32,000 bases of DNA from Alphaproteobacteria bacterium (lineage in GTDB: Bacteria; Pseudomonadota; Alphaproteobacteria; Rs-D84). The translations under genes and the position numbers were made by a program. Below, piece after piece: positions 1 to 23,239 of the stretch (position 1 is its first letter; every line of letters starts with the position of its first letter). Location of the stretch: NCBI GenBank assembly GCA_017475605.1, contig JAFVFD010000005.1:90001-122000 (forward strand). Reading direction: 5' to 3'. The notes under the pieces are model-generated. The model saw only the letters and a list, made by a program, of their open reading frames with translations. It made no database searches and was not told the DNA's origin.

Positions 1-573
1 AACAGTATCCGGTGTGGCAACAATTTCTGTTTTCTGTTCCGGACATGGAGTTGGTTTCACCGGTGCCGACTTCGCTGGCTGCGCTGGTTTAACAGGTGCT
101 GGTTTTGCCGGTTTCACAGGCTGTGCTGGTTTTGCCGGTTTTGCAGGCTTTTTGGCTGGCTTGGCCGGCTTTTTAGCCTGTTTCGCTGGTTTTTCACATT
201 TGCAGCAATCACATTTGTTTTTCGCATCCTTGCAATCACAACCTGTCTTATTACCTTGGCATGCGCAAGCCTTGGCTTCACGACAAACCGCCAAAGAATC
301 ACGCAAATCTGCTATTGTGGAATCACGTACGACAATTGTATCGCGCAAAGCGGAATTTTCATCATTCAATTCACTAATGCGCCCATTTGCCGCTTCGACT
401 GCGTTGCTGGCATCTGTCAATGCTGTATTGTTCTTTGAAACAAGTGTATGCCATTCCTGTGCTTCATCACGTGCAGCACGTTTATCGCTGCACTGTTTAA
501 CACCGAAAACAATAGCGATAACCGCAACCGTTCCCAGTGCGATATTTGCCCAAGTTCTTTTATCCATAGCCAT
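1..573 (-). CDS. Partial membrane-anchored protein (3' end lies beyond the window edge). It has an N-terminal TM helix, a coiled-coil-like segment, a dense Cys cluster and a Pro/Ala/Lys repeat region.
   Basis: Absent from the ORF track because no stop codon lies in the window. Reading the reverse complement from ATG 573..571 gives MAMDKRTWANIALGTVAVIAIVFGVKQCSDKRAARDEAQEWH...CREAKACACQGNKTGCDCKDAKNKCDCCKCEKPAKQAKKPAKPAKKPAKPAKPAQPVKPAKPAPVKP..., open for 191 codons down to position 1. An AAAGGGA Shine-Dalgarno-like motif (revcomp of 580..586) lies 6 nt upstream. A TTGACA-17-TATATT promoter lies further upstream. Confidence 0.6.
   Translation of the reverse strand, partial: MAMDKRTWANIALGTVAVIAIVFGVKQCSDKRAARDEAQEWHTLVSKNNTALTDASNAVEAANGRISELNDENSALRDTIVVRDSTIADLRDSLAVCREAKACACQGNKTGCDCKDAKNKCDCCKCEKPAKQAKKPAKPAKKPAKPAKPAQPVKPAKPAPVKPAQPAKSAPVKPTPCPEQKTEIVATPDTV
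96..141. repeat. 19-nt perfect direct repeat gtgctggttttgccggttt (96..114 and 123..141, 27-nt period) inside the PAK-repeat coding region
   Basis: Read directly from the sequence. On the minus strand it encodes successive KPAKPA units. Confidence 0.8.
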
Positions 574-605: not shown

Positions 606-634
606 AATATAGACAAAATATTATGTTTTGTCAA
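606..634 (-). promoter_or_regulatory. Sigma70-type promoter for the 1..573 gene: TTGACA (revcomp of 629..634), 17-nt spacer, TATATT (revcomp of 606..611)
   Basis: Perfect -35 hexamer, 17-nt spacer and a 5/6 -10 match, about 30 nt upstream of the ATG at 573. Confidence 0.5.
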
Positions 635-674: not shown

Positions 675-703
675 TTGCGCCCCACACCGTTTTTTGATAT
701 AAT
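675..703 (+). promoter_or_regulatory. Extended -10 promoter for the 720..7642 gene string: TTGCGC (675..680), 17-nt spacer ending in TGa, TATAAT (698..703)
   Basis: Perfect TATAAT preceded by TG at 695..696 (the TGnTATAAT form). It ends 16 nt upstream of the ATG at 720. Confidence 0.5.
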
Positions 704-719
704 TAGGCATCAGAGAGAA

Positions 720-1580
720 ATGATAAAAAAACTTGCTTTTGTAATACTATCTTGTGCGCTGGTGCCTGTGGTTGGGCATTCGGCGTGTTCACGCGCGAAT
801 TTAACACGTTGTTTGGATTCTGCGTGTGCGGTTAACATATCGTCAAATCCGGCGGCACGTTGTCAATATTGTGGTACTGCGGATGCCGGCGAACCGAACG
901 ACGCGGGGTTGCGTGCCGTATCCGTTGGAACATCTGCGAAATACAATATTTCGGCGCGCGATTTGAAAAGCGCCCCAACCGATCCCGGCGAACGCTATGT
1001 TTGGGCATCAAAAAAATGTATTTCTATTGTTGATGGCTGTACCGCGGACGATGTGTCGGATGTGTACGATAAATTAATTGAACAATCTTGTACCGCCGCG
1101 GGAATAAGTGCACAAATGGCCGTACTATTCGAAAATGCGCGCAAGGTTAAGACAGAATCTGCATGTAAATCTGAAATAACGGCGTGTATGGTTGGCGAAG
1201 CAAAATGTACTTCTAAATACAGCGGCTGTGCCGAAGATGCCGATTTTGATAAATATTTTTCGGAATGTTCCATCGCATCTGTTGGTTGTGATGCGTATTT
1301 GTCGGACATCCGTTCAACACTTGCCACCGCACGCGATCGCGCAATTAAAAACGCCGAGGAAACACTTTTGGCCATTGTCCAATCGTACAGGGATGCGCGT
1401 GCAAAACGTTTGGCTGCAATTACCAAATCGTGCGATGATAACTCTGCGCGCGACGCGTGTATAACATCTGTATGTAACCGCAGTATGCCGAACAAGTGCG
1501 ATGCGGCATATCCATCTGAAAAATCTATGGCAACACAGTTGTGCAAGTTTTATGACATAGCGTGTTCGACATTAAAATAA
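720..1580 (+). CDS. Secreted cysteine-rich protein, small member of the Cys-module family (about 20 Cys in the mature chain by my count)
   Basis: The track ORF 663..1580 starts at a TTG. The first ATG (720) gives a classic signal peptide, MIKKLAFVILSCALVPVVGHS. Cys modules: CSRANLTRCLDSACAVNISSNPAARCQYC (786..875) and CKSEITACMVGEAKCTSKYSGC (1164..1229). A helical Arg/Ala-rich stretch precedes further Cys pairs. Confidence 0.75.
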   Translation: MIKKLAFVILSCALVPVVGHSACSRANLTRCLDSACAVNISSNPAARCQYCGTADAGEPNDAGLRAVSVGTSAKYNISARDLKSAPTDPGERYVWASKKCISIVDGCTADDVSDVYDKLIEQSCTAAGISAQMAVLFENARKVKTESACKSEITACMVGEAKCTSKYSGCAEDADFDKYFSECSIASVGCDAYLSDIRSTLATARDRAIKNAEETLLAIVQSYRDARAKRLAAITKSCDDNSARDACITSVCNRSMPNKCDAAYPSEKSMATQLCKFYDIACSTLK

Positions 1581-1587
1581 ACGGAAT

Positions 1588-3624
1588 ATGTTGAAAATGA
1601 ATACGAACAGAACCGGAATCTTTGGCAGAAAAATTTGTAGTGTGGCCTTTATTATTTTGGCGGTCGTTGCCGATGCGTCGGCTGCAAATGTGGTCCAGCG
1701 AAATACGGTATCTTCAACAAATCGGGTTTCGGCCACACGTCCATCCGCCGCGGCATCTCGTATGCCAACAATGATGGTTAATGTTGGCGCAACATCACAA
1801 AGCACAACACCGGCAGTATCGGACACACCCGCCACGACAACAACGAAAACCACAACTACAAACACCCCGGAACCAACACCAAACATTGAAAACAAATCAT
1901 CACAATTTGGTACGGGCCTTACATCTAAATCAGAAACCCAGATTGACACCGCGGCAACAAACCTGGCTGAATTGGTCCGCGCACAACGTGCTGCACTGGA
2001 TGCGGCGGATGCGACCGCGGCAATAACTGCGGCGGCACAAACCGTTACAATCAACGGGGAAAACTCCTGTGATACCGCGTTGCGTGAATGTATGATTGGC
2101 AAATGTGGTTCTAATTTTGCAAAATGCGTTTCCGATACAGATACTACATTTTTCGATAAAATGGACACATGCCGTCGCACAACGAATTGTACCGGCCATG
2201 AATATCAATTGTTTTCCGTTGAAATCAAGGCCGATCGTGATTTAAACGCAATGCTGGCAAATTATAACGCGACAATCGATTGCGGTAATAATTACGATTC
2301 TTGTATTATCGCACAGTGTGGGGCTAATTATTCCAAATGTATTGGTAAAAGTGCCGGCGACACCGCAATTGCAAAATGCGAATCAATCGCGAAATCATGT
2401 ATTGAACGCGATTCCGGTTTGGCAATGCGAACAATGGGTGTATTTGGCGAACTACGCCAGGATGCCGAACGCCAGATAGCAACCGACGAACAAAAATTGT
2501 ATGCCCTGCGGGATAGAATGCGCACCCTTTGTACGCGTTTGGGTGCAATGTTTGACGAACGCAGTTTGGATTGTGTTTATACGGTTAATTTTTATGCTGG
2601 CAAGGACAACACGCTTTTCGCATCCAAAAAATTATATGCTGGTTCAACATTTGATTGCACACAAAATTGGTTCGGTATTGATGTAACAACATACCGCGAA
2701 AACGCACTCCGCGAAACACGCGCACAAACCGCGGCATCATCTGCGATGCTGGGGTCCGGTCTGGGCCAGGCCGTTGGTGCATTCACATCGGGCGCAATTG
2801 GTCGTGCCGTTGACCGGTTCCGCGCCGACAATGCCCTGGAAGATAAAATCAATGAATGTATGGAAACCCACAACATGACGGAATCAGAATGTCGCGCCAA
2901 GATTAGTCCATCATCTGAAAAAACGGACAAGACGGGAAATGCCAGCGAAACATTAAAGGCCGCCAAAGCACAATTTGATGATATTAAGAACAAGTTGGGT
3001 ACAGACGGTGAAGGAAGTTTTTCAACGGGCACTGTTTCATCTGCGGCCACAGCGGCAGCCGGTGCTGCAACATCCCAAGAAGATGGTTCGACTAAAGAAG
3101 AAGTTGTTGAAGAACAACCTGAAGACGAAGAGGTTTCAATGTCCACCCCAGATAATATAGACAAACCAGTAATCGACAAGAAACAAACAGATGACGTGTA
3201 TGATGTTAATTTGCCAACCTCTTTATCAACTGAACCAATAGCTATCATCAACGGAAAACTTAAGGTAAATGTTGACAATAAGTACGCAGATGCCATTAGA
3301 AACTTTGTGAAAGACGAACGCTGGAAAGGTTCTGAAAAGAAACCACAGATATATAAAAATGTCCCCAACCAAACAATAGAGATAAGTTTATATAATAAGG
3401 CCTGGACTATAAACAAAGACTTGCATGACAAATGGTTGAAAACTACAAAAGTCGATTCAAACAATTATCCTAATGATGAAATGTTTTCAGTTTGTTCAAC
3501 ACTAGAAAGCCAGTATTGTAATGGTTTAGACAACTGTGGCATAAGTTATGTCGGTCGTCATAGTGGCACAGAAGCCAACTATTACTATGGTTGCTACATC
3601 TCTGTGCCATACAGCGAACAATAA
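1588..3624 (+). CDS. Secreted cysteine-rich protein of the Cys-module family, with a Thr/Pro linker, a glycine-zipper-like segment, an acidic linker and an AT-rich C-terminal domain of unknown function
   Basis: Signal peptide ...ICSVAFIILAVVADASA; the start could be 1588 or the ATG at 1597. Modules: CDTALRECMIGKCGSNFAKC (2068..2127) and CGNNYDSCIIAQCGANYSKC (2281..2340). Gly-rich segment MLGSGLGQAVGAFTSGAIGRAV (about 2734..2812). The start lies 7 nt after the upstream stop. Confidence 0.8.
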   Translation: MLKMNTNRTGIFGRKICSVAFIILAVVADASAANVVQRNTVSSTNRVSATRPSAAASRMPTMMVNVGATSQSTTPAVSDTPATTTTKTTTTNTPEPTPNIENKSSQFGTGLTSKSETQIDTAATNLAELVRAQRAALDAADATAAITAAAQTVTINGENSCDTALRECMIGKCGSNFAKCVSDTDTTFFDKMDTCRRTTNCTGHEYQLFSVEIKADRDLNAMLANYNATIDCGNNYDSCIIAQCGANYSKCIGKSAGDTAIAKCESIAKSCIERDSGLAMRTMGVFGELRQDAERQIATDEQKLYALRDRMRTLCTRLGAMFDERSLDCVYTVNFYAGKDNTLFASKKLYAGSTFDCTQNWFGIDVTTYRENALRETRAQTAASSAMLGSGLGQAVGAFTSGAIGRAVDRFRADNALEDKINECMETHNMTESECRAKISPSSEKTDKTGNASETLKAAKAQFDDIKNKLGTDGEGSFSTGTVSSAATAAAGAATSQEDGSTKEEVVEEQPEDEEVSMSTPDNIDKPVIDKKQTDDVYDVNLPTSLSTEPIAIINGKLKVNVDNKYADAIRNFVKDERWKGSEKKPQIYKNVPNQTIEISLYNKAWTINKDLHDKWLKTTKVDSNNYPNDEMFSVCSTLESQYCNGLDNCGISYVGRHSGTEANYYYGCYISVPYSEQ

Positions 3625-3652
3625 AGTAAACGAATAAGAATTACAAAAGACA

Positions 3653-6600
3653 ATGAAAAAATTATTGATTGCTTTTTTATTTATCGTATCTGTAATACCG
3701 GCGGCATTTTCCGCACAGTCTGATGTGTATTCATGTGGTATTGCGTCATCCGCTTCTGCACCGAATATAGTTCCCGCAGACAATTGTATTCCCCAGGATA
3801 TTTTACGGGACTATCGTGTTATCAAGGGAACCGTTGTCAAGGCAAAAACAGATTCCAGGGAAAAGGTCGAACTTGTTTCCATACGTTTTACCCCGAAAGA
3901 TAAATCTCAATCAAAAGAATTAATGTTCATCGCCAGCCCACATTTCGCATTTTATATCAAGAAAGGTATAGATGGTGATATTTCTTTTACTGCCGATGGA
4001 TATCAAACACTTATATTACACCCACGTGATTTTGATGAAACCATGGGACGTTATGTTGAAATGGTACCCCAAAGTGCAGCCCCAACCACTACAGCACATG
4101 CTGTTGAAAGTCCAACAACACCAACATCTACCCCTGAAGCAAATAAAGCTGCAACCAGCACAACGCGCACACGTGCATCTACGCGTTCAGGTTCTACGCC
4201 ACCAACAAATGGCGGTTCTGCCACTACCGCAACAGTACATAAAAAAATTAACGGCAAGATTATCGAAGGTGACACAAAATTACCCGCTATTGGCGCATAC
4301 GTTACCCCACGTGGTGTCAAATCGTCCCCGTCTAATTCGGGTATAGCCGATGAAACAGGTGCTTTTCATATTGAAATGTTCCCTGCAAACACCGACGCAG
4401 AGGTGTCGTATATGGGGTACACAACAAGAATAGTTTCCGCATCACAAATGAATGATGGGATGAATATTACACTTCAGCCATCTACAGAAACTTTGGACAA
4501 GGCGGTCCTTTCCATTGTTGATTGTGGCAAAGAAAAGCGTGCAGAATTACACGCACTTACAGCCGAAGTATTAAACAACACAACGTGTATTCCAACATCT
4601 TGTGAAAATGGTTATATTTTGGAAAAACCTAAAAACATTGATGCAAAATGTACATCTTGTACAGGTCGTGTTCCCCTGGCCCGCACAGTAACAGTTGAAA
4701 ACAACCAATGTGTTCCTGACAGATGCGAAACAAACCTGGTACGCGTTGGCAATCAATGCTTGGTCGATTGTGATAAATTCAAATCTAAATTAAATGCCAA
4801 GACGGTAACACGAAAGACCCCCGGGCCAACAACTATTGCCCCAAACAATGACTATTCTTCATTTTGTAACATAGAAAGTTGTATAAACCATTCTTTCAAA
4901 AAAATTGATAATCAGTGTGTCTTACAAACAGACAAAGAATGTGATGATGTCGCCAAAAACATTAAATATGCATCGCCAAAAGGTAAATATATATACGATC
5001 GCAAGACCGATACTCTTATCTGCATTCCGGACTCTTGTACAGCAACGGGATATGTTGTTAATAAGACTACTGGTCAATGCGAATTAAAAGATAACAATTG
5101 CCCTGCTGAAATCTTGGAAAAGATGGATCCAAATGCATCGGCGGGCAGTATAAAAGAACGTGACCCCATCACAGGTGTTGCCAAAACATGCGAAATTACA
5201 GGGTGTAATAATTCCATGACCCCTAATTCCAACGGCACCAAATGCGTCAATTCGCAATGTGGCTGCGGTCAAACTTGGGATTCAACAAAAGATGAATGTG
5301 TGTCAAAAACCGAAAGAACATGCAGTGTAAAAAATGTAAAACACGCAAAGCCGTCTGGAAAATTACAATGCCAAAACACAACAAGCATGGCATTGTCTGA
5401 CGCATGCGACAAGAATACTAGTTGTAAAGAAATCTGTGCTGTTACAGAATGTGAAGACGATTACAAATTAAACCAACAAAACAATTCTTGTGATGTTCCA
5501 ACCGGTGAATGCGATTTTACTGGCGACAAACAATTCGCCAAAGACAAAGGTATTTGGAAAGAAAAATCAGGTGTGTTGGTTTGTGAACCCATCTGTAATG
5601 GCACAAACTATGAACTTGACTGGAACCCCCAAGAAAAGAAGTATAACGGTTGCAAAGTTAAATATTGTCCATGTGGTTCAATCTTGGATGACTCGACAAA
5701 GTCTTGTAAAACATGGGCCGAACTTGGTAAATCTAACTGCGACCCGATGCCGACTGGCGCAACAGCGGCCACCCGCAGTTGTCGCGATAATTCCAGTGGT
5801 GTCGAAACCACCAACTGTGCCGACGGTACATGTACAGAATTCTGTAAGATAACCGCGTGTGATACGGCCGCCGGATATATATTAAAGGATGGCACATGTG
5901 AATCTCAGGTTGGCAAACCATGTACCGCCGAGCAATTGCCAGAAAACGCGGTGGCGGGAACACAACGCGAAAACAATGGCAAGATAGAATGTGTTATCAG
6001 CAAATGCGCCAACGGATTTGAGGTTCGCCCTGATGAATTGTCCTGTGCACCCAAAATGGTATTAAGTCCGGAACAATACCAAGATGAAATCGCCGAACTG
6101 GCCGACAACGCACAAAAAATGCATGAACGTGAAACATCGTTGGAAAATCGTATATTGGGCGCGGCGGGAATTGGCGCAACGGGTATTGGTGGTACAATGA
6201 TTGGCGGCGCATTGGCCGAACGTCGTGCGGACGATGATGCGGAACGCGCAATGCGTGCATATCTGGAAACATTCCATTGCGATTATGGTAATGGTACGAA
6301 TGTAAAGGGTGGCGAAACAAATGTCGAATTACCGGGCGGTAACGATATGATTGGCCTTTACACCGAATACGCACAACTTGCCAATGATTTAAAGATTCGC
6401 AAGGAAGCCCTGGGCCTTCGTCCCGGCATTGAATCCGAGGTTGTTATTGACAAGGCCGAAACAGGTTTATACGAATACAGCAATAACGGTATTACCGGTG
6501 GAACGTACGCATCTATCGCACGTGCCCTGCTGAACCCAGACGGCGAAGATGCAAAGATGTGGGCCGCGCAACGCGCCGCCACCGACAGCAAATTAAAAAC

Positions 6601-7642
6601 AGGTGCAATTGTCGCCGGTGTTGGTACGGTGGGTTCCCTGGTCGGCAACATCGCAATCAATCATGGCAAGGGAAATAATGCAAAAGAGATTATAGCAAGA
6701 TATGAAAAATTACGCGCACCACTTGCCGTGGCCGCTGAACATGCCAACACACCGTATACCCCGGGTGATAATTCGCTTGATTGTTCTAGATTTACCGGAA
6801 CCACAGGTGTTGGTAAATCACCAAACTGCGTATGCGCAGACCCAACAAACACAAGATTTAACTATGACCGTGGTGGTTGTGTTCCATGCGAAAGCAACAA
6901 GGTATATAATCAAAACGACGAATGTGTGTGCCCAAGTGCAACACCACGTTGGAACGATGCGACAAATCGTTGCGAGTCAGAACCAACCGTTTGTCCATTG
7001 GCAAATAAATTAAAACACGCCACAAAATGTGAATGTGTTGAAAACGCAAGTGCGCCAGACGGCAAAAATTGCCAATGCAAAACAGACGAAGGTTTCGAAG
7101 AAAAAGACGGTCAATGCGTTCAGAAAGAAGTACCACCAGAACACGAATCTGGATCAGAAATTGGAAAATTCTCGTTCTCGGCAGATGCCCTTTTCGCGTC
7201 AAGTCGCTGGGAAATCAAATCTGACAAGCTTACTCAACTGCGCAGCGATTTGGCAAATGCAAAACAAACTGCGACAACCGAAAAAATTGATTTGAACGCG
7301 GACGATTATTGTGTCGTCGTCGTTGGAAAAACCGACCGCACACAATATCCTAAAAACAGTTCTATGAACAATACAAAACTGTCTTTGTATCGCGCAAATG
7401 CCATCAAAAACGAATTAAAAACTGTATTCAAAGAATCTAATATACTTACCTATGGCATCGCAGCGAAAGACTGTCCGAAAACAAAATATCCCAGGGCAAA
7501 TACCGCCGATTGCCGTCGTGTAGATGTTACTTGGTTGGCAGGATCATGCGAAGACAATAAAAATAATACAACAAATTGGATTAGCAATGTCGCAGAAGCA
7601 ACAGATGCTATATCAGAATTACAGAGTTTATTAAAAAAATAA
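3653..7642 (+). CDS. Giant mosaic envelope protein (1329 aa). Order: signal peptide, one or two CarboxypepD_reg-like beta-sandwich domains, at least 8 Cys repeats, two glycine-zipper-like segments, EGF-like Cys repeats, C-terminal OmpA_C-like domain.
   Basis: Signal peptide MKKLLIAFLFIVSVIPAAFSA. INGKIIEGDTKLPAIGAYV...DETGAFHIEMFPANTDAEVSYMGYTTRIV...NITLQPS (about 4241..4483) matches the CarboxypepD_reg pattern. Repeats of the form C-x3-4-C-x2-3-[GY]-x-[LV]-x4-7-C include CIPTSCENGYIL, CIPDSCTATGYVVNKTTGQC, CKITACDTAAGYILKDGTC and CVISKCANGFEVRPDELSC. ILGAAGIGATGIGGTMIGGALAERR lies at 6153..6220 and GAIVAGVGTVGSLVGNIAINHG at 6601..6666. CQCKTDEGFEEKDGQC is EGF-like. The C-terminus ...VVVVGKTDRTQ...NNTKLSLYRANAIKNEL...CRRVDVTW (about 7168..7540) fits OmpA_C (GhTD...N..LS..RA...RRV). 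Confidence 0.85.
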   Translation: MKKLLIAFLFIVSVIPAAFSAQSDVYSCGIASSASAPNIVPADNCIPQDILRDYRVIKGTVVKAKTDSREKVELVSIRFTPKDKSQSKELMFIASPHFAFYIKKGIDGDISFTADGYQTLILHPRDFDETMGRYVEMVPQSAAPTTTAHAVESPTTPTSTPEANKAATSTTRTRASTRSGSTPPTNGGSATTATVHKKINGKIIEGDTKLPAIGAYVTPRGVKSSPSNSGIADETGAFHIEMFPANTDAEVSYMGYTTRIVSASQMNDGMNITLQPSTETLDKAVLSIVDCGKEKRAELHALTAEVLNNTTCIPTSCENGYILEKPKNIDAKCTSCTGRVPLARTVTVENNQCVPDRCETNLVRVGNQCLVDCDKFKSKLNAKTVTRKTPGPTTIAPNNDYSSFCNIESCINHSFKKIDNQCVLQTDKECDDVAKNIKYASPKGKYIYDRKTDTLICIPDSCTATGYVVNKTTGQCELKDNNCPAEILEKMDPNASAGSIKERDPITGVAKTCEITGCNNSMTPNSNGTKCVNSQCGCGQTWDSTKDECVSKTERTCSVKNVKHAKPSGKLQCQNTTSMALSDACDKNTSCKEICAVTECEDDYKLNQQNNSCDVPTGECDFTGDKQFAKDKGIWKEKSGVLVCEPICNGTNYELDWNPQEKKYNGCKVKYCPCGSILDDSTKSCKTWAELGKSNCDPMPTGATAATRSCRDNSSGVETTNCADGTCTEFCKITACDTAAGYILKDGTCESQVGKPCTAEQLPENAVAGTQRENNGKIECVISKCANGFEVRPDELSCAPKMVLSPEQYQDEIAELADNAQKMHERETSLENRILGAAGIGATGIGGTMIGGALAERRADDDAERAMRAYLETFHCDYGNGTNVKGGETNVELPGGNDMIGLYTEYAQLANDLKIRKEALGLRPGIESEVVIDKAETGLYEYSNNGITGGTYASIARALLNPDGEDAKMWAAQRAATDSKLKTGAIVAGVGTVGSLVGNIAINHGKGNNAKEIIARYEKLRAPLAVAAEHANTPYTPGDNSLDCSRFTGTTGVGKSPNCVCADPTNTRFNYDRGGCVPCESNKVYNQNDECVCPSATPRWNDATNRCESEPTVCPLANKLKHATKCECVENASAPDGKNCQCKTDEGFEEKDGQCVQKEVPPEHESGSEIGKFSFSADALFASSRWEIKSDKLTQLRSDLANAKQTATTEKIDLNADDYCVVVVGKTDRTQYPKNSSMNNTKLSLYRANAIKNELKTVFKESNILTYGIAAKDCPKTKYPRANTADCRRVDVTWLAGSCEDNKNNTTNWISNVAEATDAISELQSLLKK

Positions 7643-7657
7643 TATGATTGTTATTTG

Positions 7658-7685
7658 ATACCCCCGCCCATTTGGGCGGGGGTAT
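7658..7685. terminator. Bidirectional intrinsic terminator shared by the convergent genes 3653..7642 (+) and 7687..8442 (-)
   Basis: Perfect 12-bp stem ATACCCCCGCCC / GGGCGGGGGTAT with an ATTT loop. It is followed by TTTTAT on the plus strand and preceded by an AT-rich run. Confidence 0.75.
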
Positions 7686-7686
7686 T

Positions 7687-8442
7687 TTATGGGTTGTAAT
7701 AACAACTGCTTGTAAATTGAAAATTACCAATATTATCGTGCAGTGTATAGTTCCCTGGTATATAACACTCATTTATGGCAGAGGCCCCTGCCCCTATTGT
7801 TGTTCCAACCGCTGCATCAGTGCCACTTGTTCCAGCATAAAATGTTGAAGATATCGGACATCGACTGCAAGAATTATTATTTAAATAATATCCTTGTACA
7901 CACACAAAATTCGGCCCACCTGGACAACCAGCATTATCAGGACACGCATTACACCGCGGGTCGTCCATTGAACTGGCTATTCCGTAATACCCAGATGCAC
8001 ATCTAAACTCTACTATTGTATTACATGTGCCACAAATACATGTTTTTCTTTGTCTCATTTGAATGTGATACGAATTAGCCGGTGTCCAGTCTGAATCGGA
8101 ACAATTTGTACAAGATGCCGAAGGGCACCCGCAGGTTTTATAAATATTCGTTGACGAATATTCACATCCATCATCTGTATAAGTTACATCCGTTAACACT
8201 TGACCTGTATTACATGATGTGCAACTTTGTACAGGACGAAAAGCCACGCTACCACTGCCATCGTAATTTGGATTAACAATAAAGTATATTGTTTCCGATG
8301 TTTTACAATTACTGCCAGTTATTATTGTTGAAAGTACATAAGAAGAATCGGGCCTGGTTTTTGTATTTGTACATGTTTGTCCATAAGCGTTAGTAAGTGT
8401 AACAAATATTATACTAGATGTGATTAAACAGTTCCTCTTCAT
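7687..8442 (-). CDS. Secreted cysteine-rich protein with ephrin-receptor-like / furin-like (GCC2_GCC3-type) repeats
   Basis: Signal peptide MKRNCLITSSIIFVTLTNAYG. Repeats: CASGYYGIASSMDDPRCNACPDNAGCPGGPNFVCVQGYYLNNNSCSRCPISSTFYAGTSGTDAA...INEC. This fits the C..GYY...C..CP pattern typical of eukaryotic-type Cys-rich repeats. RBS AAAGGGAAGGGGA lies upstream. The gene looks AT-rich relative to its neighbours by eye. Confidence 0.75.
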   Translation of the reverse strand: MKRNCLITSSIIFVTLTNAYGQTCTNTKTRPDSSYVLSTIITGSNCKTSETIYFIVNPNYDGSGSVAFRPVQSCTSCNTGQVLTDVTYTDDGCEYSSTNIYKTCGCPSASCTNCSDSDWTPANSYHIQMRQRKTCICGTCNTIVEFRCASGYYGIASSMDDPRCNACPDNAGCPGGPNFVCVQGYYLNNNSCSRCPISSTFYAGTSGTDAAVGTTIGAGASAINECYIPGNYTLHDNIGNFQFTSSCYYNP

Positions 8443-8475
8443 TGTGTTTCCCCTTCCCTTTGTGTTTCCAAGCGA

Positions 8476-8589
8476 CCGATTTAAAACGGTGGTTTTGATT
8501 CGGCTATTTTTGCCGTTGACAAAGTCCCGGAAAACCGAATAAAATAGGAATAATTAAGAGGCCGATTTTAAACCACCGTTTTAAATCGG
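8476..8589. repeat. 20-bp perfect inverted repeat bounding a 74-bp spacer: ccgatttaaaacggtggttt at 8476..8495, and its reverse complement at 8570..8589
   Basis: Read directly from the sequence. The right arm also lies inside a local hairpin (8561..8590) that is followed by a T-rich run. Confidence 0.8.
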
Positions 8590-8670
8590 CAACTTTTATT
8601 TTATGCAACACATTGTGTTTACGGCATAATCCGCCGATTTTTTGTTTTTAATTTTTTGTGTTTTTTCTTT

Positions 8671-8742
8671 GTCATTGCAAGCCTGCGAAGCAATCCACAA
8701 ACCCGTTAGATTGCCACGGTCGCTATGCTCCATCGCAATGAC
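8671..8742. repeat. Imperfect palindromic intergenic element (gtcattgc ... gcaatgac), REP-like
   Basis: The termini GTCATTGC (8671..8678) and GCAATGAC (8735..8742) are reverse complements. Internal partial symmetry: gcgaagcaatc versus gattgcc..gtcgc. Its translation (..IAMEHSDRGNL..IASQACNDKE.. on the minus strand) resembles the spurious peptides that such palindromic repeats produce in many genomes. Confidence 0.55.
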
Positions 8743-8864
8743 AAACACCACTACCCCGGCTCGTTTCACTCGCCACCCCTTAGCATGCGAAGGGGAATTA
8801 CTGAACTCTGCCCCCCATCGCCCCACCATATTATGTTGACAGGAAACACGACATTGCTTGTACT

Positions 8865-8891
8865 AAAAAACCGCCCGTATGGGCGGTTTTT
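8865..8891 (-). terminator. Intrinsic terminator downstream of the autotransporter gene
   Basis: AAAAAA-CCGCCC-GTAT-GGGCGG-TTTTT, located 10 nt beyond the stop codon at 8902..8904 (minus strand). The symmetric A/T flanks make it potentially bidirectional. Confidence 0.75.
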
Positions 8892-8901
8892 ATCAAGAAC
8901 A

Positions 8902-11900
8902 TTAGAATCTGTACGACCCAGACAATCTGAACTTGTGGAACTGAATATCGTTGTTATATTGATAACGATAATCAAGACCCATTTGGAATCCCTTGGCCGA
9001 CAACAATTCCACACCACCACCAATATTTGCCCACAATGGATCAATATCTACACTGTACTTGCTGTAAGTTTTCGCCGGACCAAACTTAAAGTTAATTGAA
9101 TCTGGAACCCCCAGGACATCATATTCGATTCCCGCCGATGCATATGGACGAACCTGGAACCAGGATGTTGGGTATATACGTTTTTGTACAATCAACGAAT
9201 AGCCCGGTGTGAATATCAGATAACCATCCGAATCCATTTGCATATAATCGGAACCTGCGGCCTTTTCTTTGACCGAGAAGCCAAAGTTATATCCAACACG
9301 CGCATACGCGTTACCGACCAGATATTGATTCAACCAATCATGTAACAGGCCCCATTCGGAAATCAAACTAAATGCCGTACCGGAACCACTTATGCTTGAA
9401 ACATAGTTCTGTTCACGCGAAATATCCAGCAAGTGTAAATCAAAGAACCCGTTTCCATACAGACGTGTTTTCGTACCCAAAATCTTCATCATGTATGCAC
9501 CCAAACCAATATTCGTGTCTGCAACATCAAAACTGACGCGGCCATTGATGGTTTCATTTGGTCTGTAACTTAAATCTATTGTATCAGCATCATCAGATGA
9601 CATGTGCGAAACATGGCCAACAAATCCCAAAAGTAATGTTGAAGAATGTTGCCAATCATAACCGCCCATTATGCTGAATCTGTCGCCGTTCGCATGTTTT
9701 CCATCATCTGTATTTTGATAGAATAAACCATAGTCAACATCAACCCATGCTTTTTTCAAACTGCGATGACGATTCCAAATAAATTCATCCAACATGTGAT
9801 CTTCGAAATCGCGGAATGTGGTATGTTCATTTAACACAACATCGCCCGCAACCAATTCTGCTTCACGTGGCTGGACCAGGCGACTAAACCGCGCCAATGC
9901 TGTACCATCCGGATTCAACACATATTGTTCCATACGGTTGTACAATTCATTTGCCAATTCTTCTAAATTAGTTCCGGCAAATGCTACTGGTATCGCCTCG
10001 ATTGGTGTAGTGTTATTAAACTTCTTATCCTTTAACCCACCCGCAATCATTTCGTCCAATGCGCCGGCGGCATCATGTTCACCATCGGTATGATTATCTA
10101 CACGATCCACAATTGGTTGAATTTTGAAGACTTCAACCGGACCACCAAAGCGGGAATCAAACACGATATAGATACTGTCGGTTACACCATCTTCGTCTAT
10201 ATCACGCACCGTCAGATATGCCGGTAATTGTGTTTGCGTTTGGTTCGCGTTTGCATTTTCAGCAATAGAATTGTCGAAATACTTGAAACACAAACTGCCA
10301 TCGGCATTACAGAAATTGACATTCAGGTTACGAATCTTGTTTGCCAATTCATCCAAGCCTTCACTGCTGGCGGAATGTAACAACCAAATGGCGGTACCAC
10401 TGTCCACCATATCGAATATATCAATTCCGATTTGTGGCGCGACCAATTCATCGCCCGACAATTCAGAACCAACATTCGTTGCCTTGTTGATAAAACGACC
10501 CGCAACAGAAATCAATGGTGCCGCATTACCATCTGTGGCATTTGTGATTTGACCCAATGTATTATCATCAGCCAATGATACCGTCGACCAATAATTGTAT
10601 GTTGTTGAATTAATTTCCACACCCGGATATCCTAAAATCGCGGCATGTATCATGCTGTTATTATCAAATGTATAATTACCGCCAACATCCATGTGTTCAA
10701 GGCCAACAAATTGTACCCCGCCAGAAACATTACCACCCACATCAACATCCAGCCAGTTATTTGCTGGATCCGCCTGGATACGCAAATTGGTTGCATCAAT
10801 ATTATTCGTAATCGCAACATCACTGCTTTTAATCGTCATTGAACCAGATTCCTGTTTGATTCCCTTGACGGTTAAATTAGATGTTGTTAATACATGATTG
10901 TCGGACATTATGTTAACATCGCCCGTTCCCAACCCAGATGTATAATTTTGACGCAACATTCCACCAATCGTAAACGCATTACCCAATGTCAAGGTATTTG
11001 CGGTTATTGTTGCCGTCCCAGTGTTATTTTTGAACGATGCGGCATTAACGGCACCTGATGTTGTCTTTAATGACAAAGTACCAGTATTTTCCACAACCCC
11101 CAATGACAAATCATCAGTTGTATTCAATGTCAACGTGCCCGCGTTTTTGGTCTTTGCGTTGTTCCCCGTTATCGCGACAGATTCCGCATTGATTATTGCC
11201 GTACCCGCTGCAACAACATCAATACCATTTGCAAATGTCGCATTATTTGTAATGTTATAAGTTACTGTATTGGCATTAACCAACAATGCACCACCTGAAA
11301 CATTCAAATTATCTGCCTTCAATGTGCCGCCATTATTCAAGACCAACACACCACCGGTTGTGCCACCCTGGCTCATATCGCCATTGGATACAGATATATC
11401 GCCATCAACATCTATCGCCCCAGATGCCAACTTGGTTGTTCCGCCCGACAATGTCATACTATCTGAATTAACAGATGCACCCGACAAAGTAACATCGCCC
11501 CCCGATACAACCACAGAATCTATGCCCAGCGCATTTGTTGCCGCCACCGTCGTTGTCCCGGCCGATGAATCCAACCCGGACATTGTTATGGCCTTGGCAT
11601 TTATATCCAATGTACCTTTGTTCGTTACAGTACCCGTATTAACCGAATCGGTGGTGTTCGTGGTTCCCAATGAAACCGTACCAGATGTCCCATTGTTAAT
11701 CGCCGCTGTTTTAACGGTTGTACCGGTTGCCGTAACCGTACCACCATTTGTTGTTGTTATTGCATCATTAAACTTAACCACATTAGATGCAGTAACATTT
11801 AACACACCATTCGCTGTATCTGCCACAATTGCACCACCCAACGTTGCATCGTTTCCGGACACAATATTCAATGTTCCATTTTTAATCGATGCACCACCAT

Positions 11901-14097
11901 CTACCAATACATCGCCGGTATTCGTTTTTAATGTAATTGCGGATGGGCCACTTATAACCACACCCTTGGTTTGACCGGTTGTACCGTCAAAGAATATTCC
12001 ATTATCAATATCAATGTCGCCACTTGTTGCGGTTACACCATTCCCATGCAGAAGGAACAATCCAGCCCCCGACAAAGATTTTAATGTTGTTGCACCAGAA
12101 TATATTTCAACCGTTCCACCATTGTTTGCCGTAACATCACCAGTAATATCTAATGTTGTTTGCGTTGTTGATGTTGGTGCGTTACCGAACGCAATATTCC
12201 CCTTGCCACCAACGGTTACATCGCCACCAACCTCTATTACATTGGCCGCCAATGTTCCAGTACGCGCCACAGACGAATCGGTTGCGGTAACATCACCATC
12301 AATATTTATTTGTCCAGTGGACGCAAGTGTAAATCTGTTAACACCACTGTTTGCAACATTAACATCGCCCGCCGCGGTTGCATTAGTTCCACTAAATGTT
12401 AAATTGCCATTGATTTGCGTTCCGCCACCAACAGTTAAATTATATGTATTCGCCCCAACGTTAAACGCACCCGTCGTTACCAAAAGGTCGTTAGTTATTG
12501 TTGCGCCACCAATCCGCGCATCCAGGTTTGTTACACCACCCTGGGCATCAATACCACCGATAACAACACTGGCCCCTGCCAAATCGGAGCCCTCGATTGT
12601 CGTTGTTCCTGCGGTTGTTAACACAACGCCATCAATTGCGATTTGACGCGCACTAACATCAGTTGTTCCACCGGAATTGCTAACCCCACCAGACAAATGA
12701 ATTTTTCCAGTCGGATCGGTTTGCGCCGCAACGGTCAAAACACCATTACCAGTATTGGATACACTGGTTAATTCTATGATATCGCCATTCAATGTCATCA
12801 CACCGGCATTAGATACCGCCCCGGTCGCGGTTAATGTGCCATCCGCAGAAACCGTCGTTTTTGACCCGGCGGCACCATAAATACTTGTCCCAGATGGTGT
12901 AGTAATTGTGATATTACCGGCGGTGTCTTCTATTGTAGAAACTGTTAATTGATAACCGCGGTTTTGAATTGTGTTGGCTGTTATGCCGCCGGCCCCCGCG
13001 GTCAAAGTCATATTTGCCGCCGCGTTTTCTGAACCGTTGGAAATATTGTTCGCAGCAATTGAACCGCCACTTACCACCAATTCAAAGTTTGTTAATTTAT
13101 TATTTTCAAAAACCTGGGACAGACTGTCTGCACCGCCACCCAAATTCAATGTACCTGTTTTAAGGCTGAAAGTATTGGTGGCCTCCATATCGCTTAAATC
13201 AAAACCATATGCCAAACTAGTTTCACCCGTAACAACAATTGATAAATTACCCTTGTTCACGAACGATGCCTGGGTCCCCGAACCACCATTAATTTCCAAT
13301 GAATCAACCGCAATATTCATGATACTGCCGGTGTTATCATTCTTCATTGTTCCATCAACAGTCATATCCGTACCGGTTATACGCATAAGGGTTCCACTGT
13401 TTTCGACACTGCCACTTGTTGTAATTTCATCACCCGATTCAACAAGCATAGAACCACTGTTGTTTTGGATATTACGCGCAGAAATACTGCCCGCTGTGAT
13501 TTGCGTTTCCGCATTACCATTTGCGATAAAATCGTTAGTAATCGCTAAACCATTTGTAACATTGATTGTTGTGTTTCCGGACACAGAATCAATCGTTCCG
13601 GTTATATTTGCGGCATTCGCGGTTATTTCAAGGTTATCCTTGCTGGTAATATTACCGGTATTAAGTGTACCGATATTTTCCATTACCAACCCACCATCCG
13701 CACTTATCGTACCAATATTAACAGACGAAATTGTTGTGCCCTGGGTTTTAGATTTAATCCCCAACGAATAACCAGACAAAACTTCTAATACACTTGTAAT
13801 AGAAACATTACCATCACTTGCAATTGTATACGGATTCAATGCGGTTGGTTCAACAAAAATCTGACCACTGGCAACCCCGGAACCAGCCTGTCCAACATAC
13901 AAATTACTTGCCGACAAACCGCCGGTTCCCAACGATAAACCGTTACCTGAAATAACACGCACAAAATTATCAGACGGCACCGCCAGCCCATCCATAACAT
14001 TTGAATTCGGGGCCGTCGCCGGATCAATAACAATCGGTTCCGCGACCGCCGCGCTAAACGGCACAACACATGACATAAATGCTAAAAATTTTTTCAT
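8902..14097 (-). CDS. Type Va autotransporter (1731 aa) with a long repetitive beta-helix-type passenger and a C-terminal beta-barrel translocator
   Basis: Signal peptide MKKFLAFMSCVVPFSAAVAEP. About 1200 aa are rich in Gly/Thr/Asn/Val with degenerate repeats (..GGTTxV, ..TxTGxxV..). The C-terminal ~280 aa show an alternating hydrophobic pattern and end in ...FRLSGSYRF, with the terminal aromatic typical of OMP barrels. Confidence 0.9.
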   Translation of the reverse strand: MKKFLAFMSCVVPFSAAVAEPIVIDPATAPNSNVMDGLAVPSDNFVRVISGNGLSLGTGGLSASNLYVGQAGSGVASGQIFVEPTALNPYTIASDGNVSITSVLEVLSGYSLGIKSKTQGTTISSVNIGTISADGGLVMENIGTLNTGNITSKDNLEITANAANITGTIDSVSGNTTINVTNGLAITNDFIANGNAETQITAGSISARNIQNNSGSMLVESGDEITTSGSVENSGTLMRITGTDMTVDGTMKNDNTGSIMNIAVDSLEINGGSGTQASFVNKGNLSIVVTGETSLAYGFDLSDMEATNTFSLKTGTLNLGGGADSLSQVFENNKLTNFELVVSGGSIAANNISNGSENAAANMTLTAGAGGITANTIQNRGYQLTVSTIEDTAGNITITTPSGTSIYGAAGSKTTVSADGTLTATGAVSNAGVMTLNGDIIELTSVSNTGNGVLTVAAQTDPTGKIHLSGGVSNSGGTTDVSARQIAIDGVVLTTAGTTTIEGSDLAGASVVIGGIDAQGGVTNLDARIGGATITNDLLVTTGAFNVGANTYNLTVGGGTQINGNLTFSGTNATAAGDVNVANSGVNRFTLASTGQINIDGDVTATDSSVARTGTLAANVIEVGGDVTVGGKGNIAFGNAPTSTTQTTLDITGDVTANNGGTVEIYSGATTLKSLSGAGLFLLHGNGVTATSGDIDIDNGIFFDGTTGQTKGVVISGPSAITLKTNTGDVLVDGGASIKNGTLNIVSGNDATLGGAIVADTANGVLNVTASNVVKFNDAITTTNGGTVTATGTTVKTAAINNGTSGTVSLGTTNTTDSVNTGTVTNKGTLDINAKAITMSGLDSSAGTTTVAATNALGIDSVVVSGGDVTLSGASVNSDSMTLSGGTTKLASGAIDVDGDISVSNGDMSQGGTTGGVLVLNNGGTLKADNLNVSGGALLVNANTVTYNITNNATFANGIDVVAAGTAIINAESVAITGNNAKTKNAGTLTLNTTDDLSLGVVENTGTLSLKTTSGAVNAASFKNNTGTATITANTLTLGNAFTIGGMLRQNYTSGLGTGDVNIMSDNHVLTTSNLTVKGIKQESGSMTIKSSDVAITNNIDATNLRIQADPANNWLDVDVGGNVSGGVQFVGLEHMDVGGNYTFDNNSMIHAAILGYPGVEINSTTYNYWSTVSLADDNTLGQITNATDGNAAPLISVAGRFINKATNVGSELSGDELVAPQIGIDIFDMVDSGTAIWLLHSASSEGLDELANKIRNLNVNFCNADGSLCFKYFDNSIAENANANQTQTQLPAYLTVRDIDEDGVTDSIYIVFDSRFGGPVEVFKIQPIVDRVDNHTDGEHDAAGALDEMIAGGLKDKKFNNTTPIEAIPVAFAGTNLEELANELYNRMEQYVLNPDGTALARFSRLVQPREAELVAGDVVLNEHTTFRDFEDHMLDEFIWNRHRSLKKAWVDVDYGLFYQNTDDGKHANGDRFSIMGGYDWQHSSTLLLGFVGHVSHMSSDDADTIDLSYRPNETINGRVSFDVADTNIGLGAYMMKILGTKTRLYGNGFFDLHLLDISREQNYVSSISGSGTAFSLISEWGLLHDWLNQYLVGNAYARVGYNFGFSVKEKAAGSDYMQMDSDGYLIFTPGYSLIVQKRIYPTSWFQVRPYASAGIEYDVLGVPDSINFKFGPAKTYSKYSVDIDPLWANIGGGVELLSAKGFQMGLDYRYQYNNDIQFHKFRLSGSYRF

Positions 14098-16045: not shown

Positions 16046-17602
16046 TTATTCGTCGCAACCGTATTCGCCACACGTGCCATCGGAATATTCGCCAACTTCT
16101 ATCGCGACAGGATTGCCTGCCGGCTCATTAGTTGTATAATGCGTTTCCTTGACTACGCGGACACGACGATTTGCCGCATTCGGTGTATTGTCTGGTGTCG
16201 GAACAGCCAAATCTTCTTCACCACTGGATACGGCGACAATCTGACTTGCCGGGATACCGTATTGAATCAGCATTTTCTGGACCGCTTCGGCACGACGACC
16301 CCCCAGGGCATAGTTGTAACTTTTTGACCCGGCGGTATCGGTATGTCCGACCACAGAAACCTTGATATTCTTGTTTGATTGTGTCGCATCGGCCAATTTT
16401 TCAATCAAATCACGATATTCAGGTTTAATAATCGCCTTGTTGAAATCAAAACGAACTTCAAAGACTTCTTCCATGACATGCTGTTTTGGTTCCAATGGAA
16501 TCTGTTGAACCTTAATCATTGTCTTTTCGCCAGCGGCCGCCTGTAATTTATCCAAACGTGCGTTAATTGCCGCCAATTCTTCACGCATAGCCATCATCAT
16601 ATCGATAAATTCTGCGCGGGTTACGACATCGTCATTTACGACTGGAACAACAACTGGTTCTGGGTCTGGACAATTACATGATTCCTGGACAACAGGTTCT
16701 GGTTGTGGGCATGGCTTAACCTTGCACACAGTTTTTGCGCATGTGCAGTTTGATCCGGCCTGTAAACTGTTACCATTGTTGGACATGTTTTTGCTGACTG
16801 TTTTATCACCACCATAAATGTTTTGATTAAATACCATTGGTTGTACAGGTACCGGGTTAATAAGGTGTTCCGGCACATTCACATTGTTAACAATAATAAC
16901 ACCTTCGCGGGCGCGAGACGAATTGCTCATTGCGCGCATATTGCGTGTTTCCGGGTAATATTCACCGGCACTGCGCTGAACATCATTAACTGCGATTTCT
17001 GTTTTAACTGTTTGTGTTGTCTGGGTCTGGACAGGTGTTTTTGCGATTACCTTGCCCCCCTTGCAATCACGCAGGGCAACCAAAGCCTTTTGGAAACGGT
17101 CGCGACATTGACGCGCGGTTGCTTCTTGGCCACTGGCGGTGGCGGACAACCAACAATCGTATTTAGCCTGAACTTCGGCCGCCAATTCAGGATGTAAATC
17201 GGATGCATCGTTTTTCAATTGTTCCATCAATTCATTGTATGCGGTATATAATTCAAACGATGTTTGTTCATCATCAACCGGCCAATTTTCCATTGTTTCC
17301 GGGAACGGCAATTCACCAGAAAATGCGGCAACCGCCTTCTGTGCGAACAATTCGCCCATTTCAGGATAGCCTGATGTACGCGCATTGTATATAGCATACG
17401 AACGATAGTTCATCGCCAATTGATTCAAAAAGGAATCTTTATGTGGTGCAGAATACACATCCAACCGTTCAACATAATCGACAGTTGGTGTTGAAACATC
17501 ATATGCGACATCGCCCGCATTATCACGCGCACACGCGCCCAATGCCAGTATCAACAGGCCTGTCAATATTTGTACTTTGCACTTTGAACTTTGATTTTTC
17601 AT
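16046..17602 (-). CDS. OmpA-family outer-membrane lipoprotein with a Cys/Pro-rich linker and a peptidoglycan-binding OmpA_C domain
   Basis: Signal peptide with lipobox ..LLILALGAC. OmpA_C: FDFNKAIIKPEY...VSVVGHTDTAGSKSYNYALGGRRAEAV...NRRVRVV. Linker: CTCAKTVCKVKPCPQPEPVVQESCNCPDPEPVV. RBS AGGAAAGGGGA. Confidence 0.9.
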   Translation of the reverse strand: MKNQSSKCKVQILTGLLILALGACARDNAGDVAYDVSTPTVDYVERLDVYSAPHKDSFLNQLAMNYRSYAIYNARTSGYPEMGELFAQKAVAAFSGELPFPETMENWPVDDEQTSFELYTAYNELMEQLKNDASDLHPELAAEVQAKYDCWLSATASGQEATARQCRDRFQKALVALRDCKGGKVIAKTPVQTQTTQTVKTEIAVNDVQRSAGEYYPETRNMRAMSNSSRAREGVIIVNNVNVPEHLINPVPVQPMVFNQNIYGGDKTVSKNMSNNGNSLQAGSNCTCAKTVCKVKPCPQPEPVVQESCNCPDPEPVVVPVVNDDVVTRAEFIDMMMAMREELAAINARLDKLQAAAGEKTMIKVQQIPLEPKQHVMEEVFEVRFDFNKAIIKPEYRDLIEKLADATQSNKNIKVSVVGHTDTAGSKSYNYALGGRRAEAVQKMLIQYGIPASQIVAVSSGEEDLAVPTPDNTPNAANRRVRVVKETHYTTNEPAGNPVAIEVGEYSDGTCGEYGCDE

Positions 17603-18511: not shown

Positions 18512-18602
18512 CTCTCTGTGGTAAATATTATATCATAAAAAATGTTGCTCTCAAATATAAAAATTGCTTTTTATTAACGGGCGCGCTAAAGTGTTTCTTG
18601 AT

Positions 18603-19079
18603 ATGACAGACAACAGAACATTTCTTATCTTTTCTAAACACCGCCGTCTTCAACGTCTGTGGCAGTTTTTTTTCACAGGCTGGGGACTGGTGATGGTTGC
18701 GGCATTGGTTGCGGGCACGCTGTTCACGCGCCAATTATTATGGACGCCTATTGCCGCGATAAATATGCGCGACATCGCAACAAATCAGTTCAAGATGACG
18801 GACGCATCTTTTTCCGGGCTTGATCGCGATGGCAACCCATTTCACATCAATGCAAAAACAGCGCGCCAGGAATACGACCAACCAGACATTGTTTTTCTGG
18901 ATACAATACGTGGCAACATAACACGTAAAATTGATGGAAAAATGGAAACGAATAATGTTTCCGCCGACCATGGTCAGTATCATATAAAACAGAAACGCGT
19001 TACTTTAAGTGGTAATGTATATTTACATTCGACAACTGGGGACAAGGTATTAACAGACGAAATGGTGATAAAACTATGA
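18603..19079 (+). CDS. lptC: LptC-like LPS export protein (N-terminal membrane anchor plus a beta-jellyroll-type domain)
   Basis: The track ORF starts at TTG 18564; the first ATG is at 18603 (MTDNRTF...). TM anchor WQFFFTGWGLVMVAALVAGTLF. Its size, its position immediately upstream of lptB and the ATGA stop/start overlap all fit lptC. The assignment is mainly by context. Confidence 0.55.
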   Translation: MTDNRTFLIFSKHRRLQRLWQFFFTGWGLVMVAALVAGTLFTRQLLWTPIAAINMRDIATNQFKMTDASFSGLDRDGNPFHINAKTARQEYDQPDIVFLDTIRGNITRKIDGKMETNNVSADHGQYHIKQKRVTLSGNVYLHSTTGDKVLTDEMVIKL

Positions 19080-21993: not shown

Positions 21994-22095
21994 AGAAAAT
22001 CCCCCCATGATAGTTGTTCTAATTATACCATAAAAAAGCCTTAAAAAAAGTTTTTTTACCGTAATTTTTGCTTTTTATTGAAAAAACTTAAAACA

Positions 22096-22123
22096 TTGAC
22101 AAAAACAATATCTTGTCTATAAT
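22096..22123 (+). promoter_or_regulatory. Consensus sigma70 promoter TTGACA-16-TATAAT, placed 7 nt upstream of the ATG at 22131 (leaderless configuration)
   Basis: TTGACA at 22096..22101 and TATAAT at 22118..22123, both perfect hexamers. There is no Shine-Dalgarno sequence between the -10 and the ATG. Confidence 0.55.
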
Positions 22124-22130
22124 AGAATTG

Positions 22131-23238: not shown

Positions 23239-23239
23239 A

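Follow-up and report, generated by a model that had tools for sequence, protein, structure and literature searches.

We examined a 32,000-nucleotide (nt) stretch of an alphaproteobacterial genome (contig JAFVFD010000005.1, positions 90,001 to 122,000; hereafter the window), in which three tandem genes on the plus strand, gene 1 (g1, 720..1580), gene 2 (g2, 1588..3624) and gene 3 (g3, 3653..7642), encode exported, cysteine-rich proteins. The source belongs to Rs-D84, the order of the Genome Taxonomy Database (GTDB) that includes Candidatus Enterousia, whose genomes of 0.75-1.0 Mb encode MreB, RodA and MrdA and lack the tricarboxylic acid cycle, respiratory chains and standard transporters (PMC12306168). 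The lineage is widespread but uncultured, with human, rodent, bird and ruminant guts as its habitats. The window matches a Logan assembly of the sequencing run SRR12529321. The analysis supports the view that the three genes form one tricistronic operon, presumably read as a single transcript, which is specific to Rs-D84 and nearly universal there. The features of the gene string are as follows, in window coordinates.

675..703, plus strand: presumed operon promoter, with a -35-like TTGCGC at 675-680, a 17-nt spacer and an extended -10 element TGATATAAT at 695-703
712..719, plus strand: GA-rich leader AGAGAGAA, conserved, a presumed ribosome-binding element that abuts the g1 ATG
720..1580, plus strand: g1, 286 amino acids (aa), exported, predicted all-helical, 20 invariant cysteines in the mature protein including a CQYC motif, no known family
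1588..3624, plus strand: g2, 678 aa, exported
g2 residues 1-32, plus strand: signal peptide, conserved in orthologs
1975-2847 (g2 residues ~130-420), plus strand: g2 core, conserved, with 15 invariant cysteines and a Gly-rich segment at residues 383-404
3205-3621 (g2 residues 540-678), plus strand: variable C-terminal alpha/beta domain of g2
3653..7642, plus strand: g3, 1329 aa, exported multidomain protein
4247..4507 (g3 residues 199-285), plus strand: CarboxypepD_reg-like domain of immunoglobulin (Ig) fold, E 3e-5, below threshold
4523..6046 (g3 residues 291-798), plus strand: EGF/CPL1-like cysteine repeats, 48 cysteines, hypervariable in length and sequence between species
6050..6697 (g3 residues 800-1015), plus strand: conserved g3 middle domain, ~215 residues
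6782..7117 (g3 residues 1044-1155), plus strand: second cysteine-repeat block, 14 cysteines, CxC motifs
7169..7552 (g3 residues 1173-1300), plus strand: predicted OmpA/MotB/TssL-like peptidoglycan-binding domain, Asp1228 and Arg1247 kept
7657..7690, plus strand: intrinsic-terminator-like hairpin, 12 Watson-Crick pairs and one G-U pair, a 4-nt loop, then UUUA

An earlier reading of the window, made from the sequence only, had placed three open reading frames (ORFs) at these coordinates on one strand with gaps of 7 and 28 nt, and both the coordinates and the gaps were confirmed; in public gene calls g2 begins at Met4 (1597), and the first gap is then 16 nt long. As that reading had stated, no hairpin or T-run was seen in the two gaps. 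A sequence scan of the plus strand found no terminator-like hairpin with a T-run within 720..7642, and the sole plus-strand hairpin hit inside the string, at 6762, has 3 GC pairs and no T tail. The extended -10 promoter claimed for 675..703 is present and of the sigma-70 type: TGATATAAT is a perfect extended -10 element, and its end lies 16 nt before the g1 ATG. A consensus promoter scan passed over this site because its -35 element agrees with the consensus at only 3 of 6 positions. In the region as a whole, neither promoter-like nor terminator-like hits outnumbered those expected from shuffled sequence. The GA-rich AGAGAGAA at 712-719 is not a canonical Shine-Dalgarno sequence, yet it is kept in 78 of 80 species; given a -10 element at 698-703, it would form nearly the entire 5' leader.

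Downstream of g3, the hairpin at 7658..7685 (ATACCCCCGCCC-ATTT-GGGCGGGGGTAT, followed by TTTAT) has the perfect 12-bp stem that had been described for it, and the stretch 7643-7700 folds with a free energy of -29.7 kcal/mol (z -4.7 against shuffles). The T tail is short (TTTAT), which is why the terminator scan did not list the hairpin. The genes on either side converge on the hairpin, which directly adjoins the stop codon (7687) of the one on the minus strand (7687-8442).

For the comparative analysis one genome was taken per GTDB species, and 194 of these genomes had a relative of g2. The best 80 of the 194 species genomes, one metagenome locus and the source contig make up a set of 82 loci, in which the gene order proposed for the window is well conserved: all 82 have g1 as the gene next upstream of g2, both in one orientation, and of the 53 loci in which the sequence continues for at least 3.5 kb beyond g2, 45 have a co-oriented g3-type gene, recognised by its middle domain, downstream. 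Median gaps in the relatives are 11 nt between g1 and g2 and 18 nt between g2 and g3. The region upstream of g1 is strikingly conserved, though the proteins are only ~55% identical: TGnTATAnT occurs 15-21 nt from the g1 ATG in 76 of 80-81 loci, TTGC at the -35 position in 52 of 80, and GAGAGA within 16 nt of the ATG in 78 of 80. When 150 nt upstream of g2 and of g3 were scanned, the extended -10 motif was found before g2 in 0 of 79 loci and before g3 in 2 of 49, against 76 of 81 before g1; a control scan inside g2 gave 0 of 79. A GC-rich hairpin with a T-run follows the g3 stop codon closely in 18 of 48 relatives by a strict rule and in more by eye. As far as sequence comparison tells, neither internal starts or terminators nor a lack of synteny was found.

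Homologs of g1 fall into more than 730 cluster representatives, nearly all of ~286 aa and with 55-98% identity, and those of g2 into more than 823. An exhaustive HMMER search with g3 residues 796-1040 gave 826 cluster representatives for the middle domain, 641 of them at E <= 1e-30. The g1 and g2 homologs come from gut and rumen metagenome-assembled genomes labelled Alphaproteobacteria bacterium, uncultured Rickettsiales or Candidatus Enterousia, one of which is circular and 958,618 bp long. One complete Enterousia-type cluster lies on a contig titled Bacteroides fragilis (CAVGNU010000017.1), which is almost certainly a mislabelled or contaminated bin.

Conserved order can also arise if the genes are co-transcribed but encode functionally unrelated envelope proteins, their spacing and synteny reflecting genome economy in a compact 0.9-Mb genome. 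Coding density in the lineage is ~0.9 (table in PMC12306168), the two genes upstream of g1, up1126 and up266, are also syntenic, 8 of 53 loci lack g3 at its position and some have further ORFs between g2 and g3, and homology between g2 and g3 is undetectable. We nevertheless regard this explanation as unlikely. The pairing of g1 with g2 is without exception in the 82 loci and only one conserved promoter serves the whole string, whereas downstream of g3 the gene dn251, a gene for a 1731-aa protein and the enolase gene are not syntenic, so that gene order in the region is not frozen. The two smaller proteins also have a cysteine-spacing motif of the CX6C-X4-CX6C type in common (BLASTP E 3e-4; hhalign E 0.0017 at 16% probability), which is suggestive of a possible distant paralogy of g1 and g2.

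The three products had been described as cysteine-rich proteins with signal peptides, and both points hold. Cysteines make up 21 of 286 residues in g1 (7.3%), 22 of 678 in g2 (3.2%) and 69 of 1329 in g3 (5.2%). The signal peptides, of the Sec type, were judged by inspection and by conservation in orthologs; each protein has an n-region, an h-region and an AxA-type site that are conserved in alignments, and N-terminal hydrophobic peaks (Kyte-Doolittle hydropathy over 19 residues, KD19, above 2) lie at residues 5-23, 18-36 and 4-22 of g1, g2 and g3, respectively. The early Cys12 in the h-region of the g1 window copy is no conserved lipobox, being absent as a conserved residue from the orthologs, which have an AxA signal-peptidase I site directly before a conserved CSRANLTRCLDS; g1 is therefore not a lipoprotein.

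Mature g1 has exactly 20 cysteines in 73 of 73 sequences, among them an invariant C48-Q-Y-C51 (CXXC) at window positions 861-872. An AlphaFold2 model built from 64 sequences is all-helical with a mean predicted local distance difference test score (pLDDT) of 76, rising to 85-93 for residues 150-286. Neither a Pfam or NCBIfam search with the protein nor a fold search of the model against the PDB at E <= 0.001 gave a match, and the PDB had no match by sequence either. The CQYC motif in this all-helical, non-thioredoxin protein is a possible redox-active site.

The signal peptide of g2 is followed by a Thr/Ala-rich region that is predicted to be disordered, yet contains the conserved motifs ANVVxR, ASRMPTM and IENKSSQF. 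The core beyond it has 15 cysteines in 78 of 79 species. The AlphaFold2 model has a mean pLDDT of 59; values of 70-85 are reached in the core, which consists of helices and one beta-hairpin, and 80-96 in the C-terminal alpha/beta domain at 540-678, which is specific to the window copy. As with g1, no match was found in Pfam or NCBIfam, or in the PDB by fold search at E <= 0.001, and the g2 family profile returned only low-complexity noise from PDB sequences.

The architecture of the g3 family was derived from an alignment of 46 orthologs and from domain scans. It runs from the signal peptide through an Ig-like domain, cysteine repeats, the middle domain and a second cysteine block to an OmpA-family domain. 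Orthologs are 511-1866 aa long, and among all homologs the middle domain is found at offsets of 2-1290 in proteins of 265-1865 aa. The window copy has an additional 115-residue N-terminal domain and a Thr/Ser/Pro linker before the Ig-like domain. The latter was found in 31 of 46 orthologs, and in 39 of 49 with a local hidden Markov model; in orthologs it matches the RagA/SusC N-terminal extension (6sli, E 1e-9, for P0001; 6ytc, E 3e-5). We tested, and dropped, a Rosetta-stone link in which the Ig-like domain would migrate between g2 (C-terminal) and g3 (N-terminal): the domain lies in g3 in 39 of 49 paired loci and never in g2 there, and 2 of 30 unpaired g2 proteins carry it. The first cysteine block could not be aligned between species; matches to CPL1-like repeats were found in 11 of 46 orthologs (best E 9e-18) and to cEGF in 2 of 46.

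The g3 middle domain contains a coiled coil and a 130-residue core flanked by Gly/Ala-rich hydrophobic segments at ~826-852 and 983-1003, whose KD19 values reach 1.29 in the first and 1.71 in the second (984-1002). It had no match in Pfam or the PDB, its profile gave only low-complexity noise against PDB sequences, and hhalign found no homology between it and g2. Its single invariant cysteine is Cys876, and exactly one cysteine is present in the domain in 48 of 49 species.

The claim that g3 ends in an OmpA_C domain holds for the family and less directly for the window: E values of 0.001 or lower were reached by 40 of the 46 aligned orthologs (best, 4e-19), and the window copy itself falls below the Pfam threshold. 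In the g3 alignment, conservation of Asp1228 and Arg1247 is 90% or higher, and the window reads GKTD...LSLYRA; in the OmpA family the Asp and Arg of the TD...LSxxRA motif contact the peptide stem. The C-terminus of g3 is by orthology a member of the OmpA/MotB domain family, the call for the window copy resting on its orthologs, and its closest solved relatives are TssL, MotB and PomB.

Since those closest solved or curated relatives are inner-membrane proteins, g3 might be one as well, with a transmembrane hairpin, a cytoplasmic 130-residue core and two large periplasmic ends, one of them with the peptidoglycan-binding domain; the operon would then encode the wall-anchored base of a trans-envelope machine instead of a structure of the outer membrane or the surface. 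A KD value of 1.71 in segment 984-1002 and the resemblance of the Ig-like domain to the periplasmic extension of RagA/SusC agree with such a topology, and only 1 of the 69 g3 cysteines lies between the two segments, as expected in a reducing compartment. The first segment is, however, marginally hydrophobic (KD 1.29), and the acidic start of the loop together with the Lys-rich side before segment 1 contravenes the positive-inside rule. Hypervariability of the stalk would also be unusual for a purely periplasmic part, and we consider this topology quite unlikely.

Cysteine numbers differ in parity among the three proteins. In the window copy of g3 the successive blocks contain 2, 48, 1, 14 and 4 cysteines, all even except for C876. 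Because the count in the g2 core is odd and fixed at 15 and C876 is single, g2 and g3 should each have one unpaired cysteine and g1 none. The orphan of the g2 core (probably C357) and C876 of g3 could form an intermolecular disulfide, or each could form homodimers. No loss of the g2 orphan was seen where g3 is not adjacent (15 cysteines in 78 of 79 species), a result that carries no weight because g3 may lie elsewhere in those genomes.

Tandem cysteine-rich exported proteins under one promoter, with fixed cysteine numbers and one orphan each in g2 and g3, are also what a disulfide lattice like that of Chlamydia would lead one to expect, and the invariant C48-Q-Y-C51 of g1 could make that protein an oxidative-folding helper acting on the g3 cysteines; the main role would then be mechanical strength, not cell contact. 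We find this highly improbable. There is no detectable homology to OmcA or OmcB: a Pfam scan at E <= 0.1 gave no family for g1 and no chlamydial family among the few weak matches of g2 and g3, with g3 matching only CarbopepD_reg_2 and OmpA. Moreover, g1 is not a lipoprotein, its predicted structure is all-helical and matches neither thioredoxin nor Erv-like proteins, a gene for a canonical Pal/OmpA-like protein lies nearby, and MreB, RodA and MrdA, hence a wall, are kept in the lineage (PMC12306168).

The reading that we favour, with a probability of roughly 0.6, is a co-transcribed, functionally linked envelope module in which g3 is the wall-bound member. The three products would act jointly in the envelope. 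As the anchor, g3 would sit in a membrane with its two Gly/Ala-rich segments and bind peptidoglycan through its C-terminal domain, and it would carry a fast-evolving stalk of disulfide-knotted EGF-like repeats with the Ig-like domain at the tip. Its invariant structural partners would be g1 and g2, as slowly evolving, disulfide-stapled helical proteins. Identity to the nearest species is 67-78% for g1, 62-71% for g2 and 42-51% for the alignable part of g3. Published work has suggested that Rs-D84 bacteria are obligate symbionts or parasites and interact with cells through unknown membrane proteins (PMC12306168). Most likely the module would serve as an apparatus for structure or cell contact, in a bacterium believed to live at the expense of other cells; the near-consensus promoter, the size of the operon, the hypervariable stalk, the exported ankyrin-repeat neighbour and the proposed partner-dependent lifestyle favour an abundant module of this kind over an enzyme or a regulator. 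Any specific role deserves much less confidence than the general module. It is doubtful, for instance, that the genes encode a tripartite, lineage-defining apparatus in which g1 and g2, with new folds, are covalently joined through orphan cysteines to a wall-anchored, diversifying stalk and work with the ankyrin protein in attaching to and exploiting partner cells.

Several observations weigh against a functionally linked module. Reduced genomes tend to keep their gene order, and synteny by itself is therefore poor evidence that genes are functionally linked. The g3-type gene is missing from its position in 8 of 53 loci, three loci have an extra ORF for a cysteine-rich protein with a signal peptide between g2 and g3, and several other loci have an ORF of this kind in place of g3. 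The U tract of the terminator is short. The OmpA domain of the window g3 scores 15.2-18.9 bits in Pfam against a cut-off of 27.2, with TIGR03350 at E 1e-7. For the Gly-rich segments (g3 815-856 and 975-1012, g2 373-417) there was no match to Gly-zipper_Omp, Gly-zipper_YMGG or Rick_17kDa_Anti at E <= 10, and the charges that flank these segments do not settle between inner and outer membrane. Rs-D84 is without respiratory chains (PMC12306168), so that the oxidising power for ~100 periplasmic cysteines is hard to source, a difficulty for all models with oxidised cysteines. Finally, both the transcript and the interaction of the proteins are what we infer from the genome sequences.

Upstream of g1, the conserved arrangement extends to divergent genes:

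606..634, minus strand: promoter-like site of the divergent gene, TTGACA, 17 nt and TATATT, 11 of 12 matches
1..573, minus strand: 5' part (191 of 266 codons) of up266, a divergent neighbour that has a 146-nt control region in common with g1
L001:2625-6005, just outside the window, minus strand: up1126, 1126 aa, divergent, syntenic in 79 of 82 loci

Many related upstream regions have a TTGTCAA stretch at about this position (by eye, uncounted). The up266 gene, placed between up1126 and g1, encodes a protein whose N-terminus is a membrane anchor and which also has a coiled coil, a dense cysteine cluster and a (PAKPAK)n spacer; it is weakly syntenic (32 of 82 loci by tblastn) and poorly conserved (23-44% identity). 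By eye only, its layout is TonB/TolA-like. The up1126 protein has a signal peptide, its N-terminal repeats are of the ankyrin type (E 5e-18 to designed ankyrins), and to the eye its C-terminal region resembles an autotransporter barrel. Because this divergent ankyrin-repeat gene is also syntenic, up1126 is probably part of the same functional cluster, and the real unit probably comprises five genes, the operon and the two divergent upstream genes.

Downstream of g3 the situation differs: synteny across the loci does not extend to the genes for the 251-aa cysteine-rich dn251, the 1731-aa protein and enolase, of which the latter two are kept only in locus L006. The product of dn251 (7687-8442, minus strand) is a signal-peptide protein with furin/VSP-like CxxC repeats, and related ORFs were found elsewhere in five other loci. 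A role of dn251 as a variation cassette for g3 was rejected, there being no protein similarity and no DNA repeats. It is followed by a 460-nt gene-free stretch (8443-8901) with two strong promoter-like sites in opposite directions and a 29-nt inverted repeat (8476-8504 / 8561-8589, 90% complementary) without an Rfam match. The 1731-aa protein (8902-14097, minus strand) has a signal peptide, a repetitive Gly/Thr/Asn-rich passenger and a beta-barrel-like C-terminus; it is autotransporter-like in appearance, has no Pfam or NCBIfam match, and is 62% identical to its counterpart in L006, the closest relative.

Farther downstream, a 518-aa protein with a canonical Pal/OmpA-like domain (Pfam E 3e-19) is encoded at 16046-17602 on the minus strand, so the cell has an ordinary wall anchor besides g3. 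LptC and LptB, encoded at 18564-19804, show that an outer membrane is present, and the window, which also encodes enolase, RpoA and L17, is a chromosomal region of a diderm with lipopolysaccharide. Three more large ORFs (703, 366 and 986 aa) without a Pfam family occupy 19897-26200, in a part of the genome that is rich in uncharacterised proteins. The window gave no match in scans for Rfam families and tRNAs. A mobile-element origin is unlikely, since GC content changes only gradually (0.35-0.49, with no abrupt block) and the genes sit within conserved core synteny.

The operon takes up almost 7 kb of a ~0.9-Mb genome, has a near-consensus promoter, and includes g1 and g2 in every species examined; by its size, the ubiquity of these two genes and its promoter it ranks among the most strongly maintained lineage-specific features. 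No description of g1, g2 or the g3 middle domain was found in the literature, in which the papers on the lineage are genome surveys only. The operon adds two protein families without a Pfam, NCBIfam or PDB match and a new architecture around an OmpA-type wall anchor. It offers a testable and well-supported lead, with a presumed function, into an enigmatic gut lineage, and is a natural first target for antibodies or imaging coupled to fluorescence in situ hybridization, for metaproteomics, and for structural work on the partner and the mode of contact.

Among the known systems closest to the operon are proteins with a peptidoglycan-binding domain of the OmpA_C/MotB/TssL type (PF00691), Pal and YiaD included; the g3 family ends in such a domain. 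With YiaD, a lipoprotein that combines a glycine zipper with an OmpA domain, it has in common a Gly-rich membrane-associated segment followed by a wall-binding domain (weak match to NF053611, E 0.043). Unlike these proteins, g3 is not a lipoprotein and has no beta-barrel, its window copy lies below the family threshold, and it adds ~800 residues of cysteine repeats, an Ig-like domain and a 215-residue middle domain without a match; a canonical Pal/OmpA gene exists separately in the window (16046-17602). The Ig-like domain is like the N-terminal extension of RagA/SusC, but no plug or barrel follows it and it tops a stalk of cysteine repeats instead. Regular cysteine spacing links that stalk to eukaryotic EGF-like and CPL1-like repeats, from which it differs in being bacterial, in its widely varying repeat number and in a window copy below significance. 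The chlamydial omcA-omcB pair, tandem genes for a small and a large cysteine-rich exported protein that we take to be co-transcribed in a reduced genome, is a parallel in concept only: here there are three members, the small one is not a lipoprotein, one member is predicted to bind peptidoglycan, and the host keeps its rod-shape and wall genes. The form of the operon is ordinary for bacteria, and its Ig-like domain, cysteine repeats and OmpA/MotB domain are of known kinds; what is new is the content, namely g1, g2 and the g3 middle domain, and the status of the cluster as one that defines a lineage.

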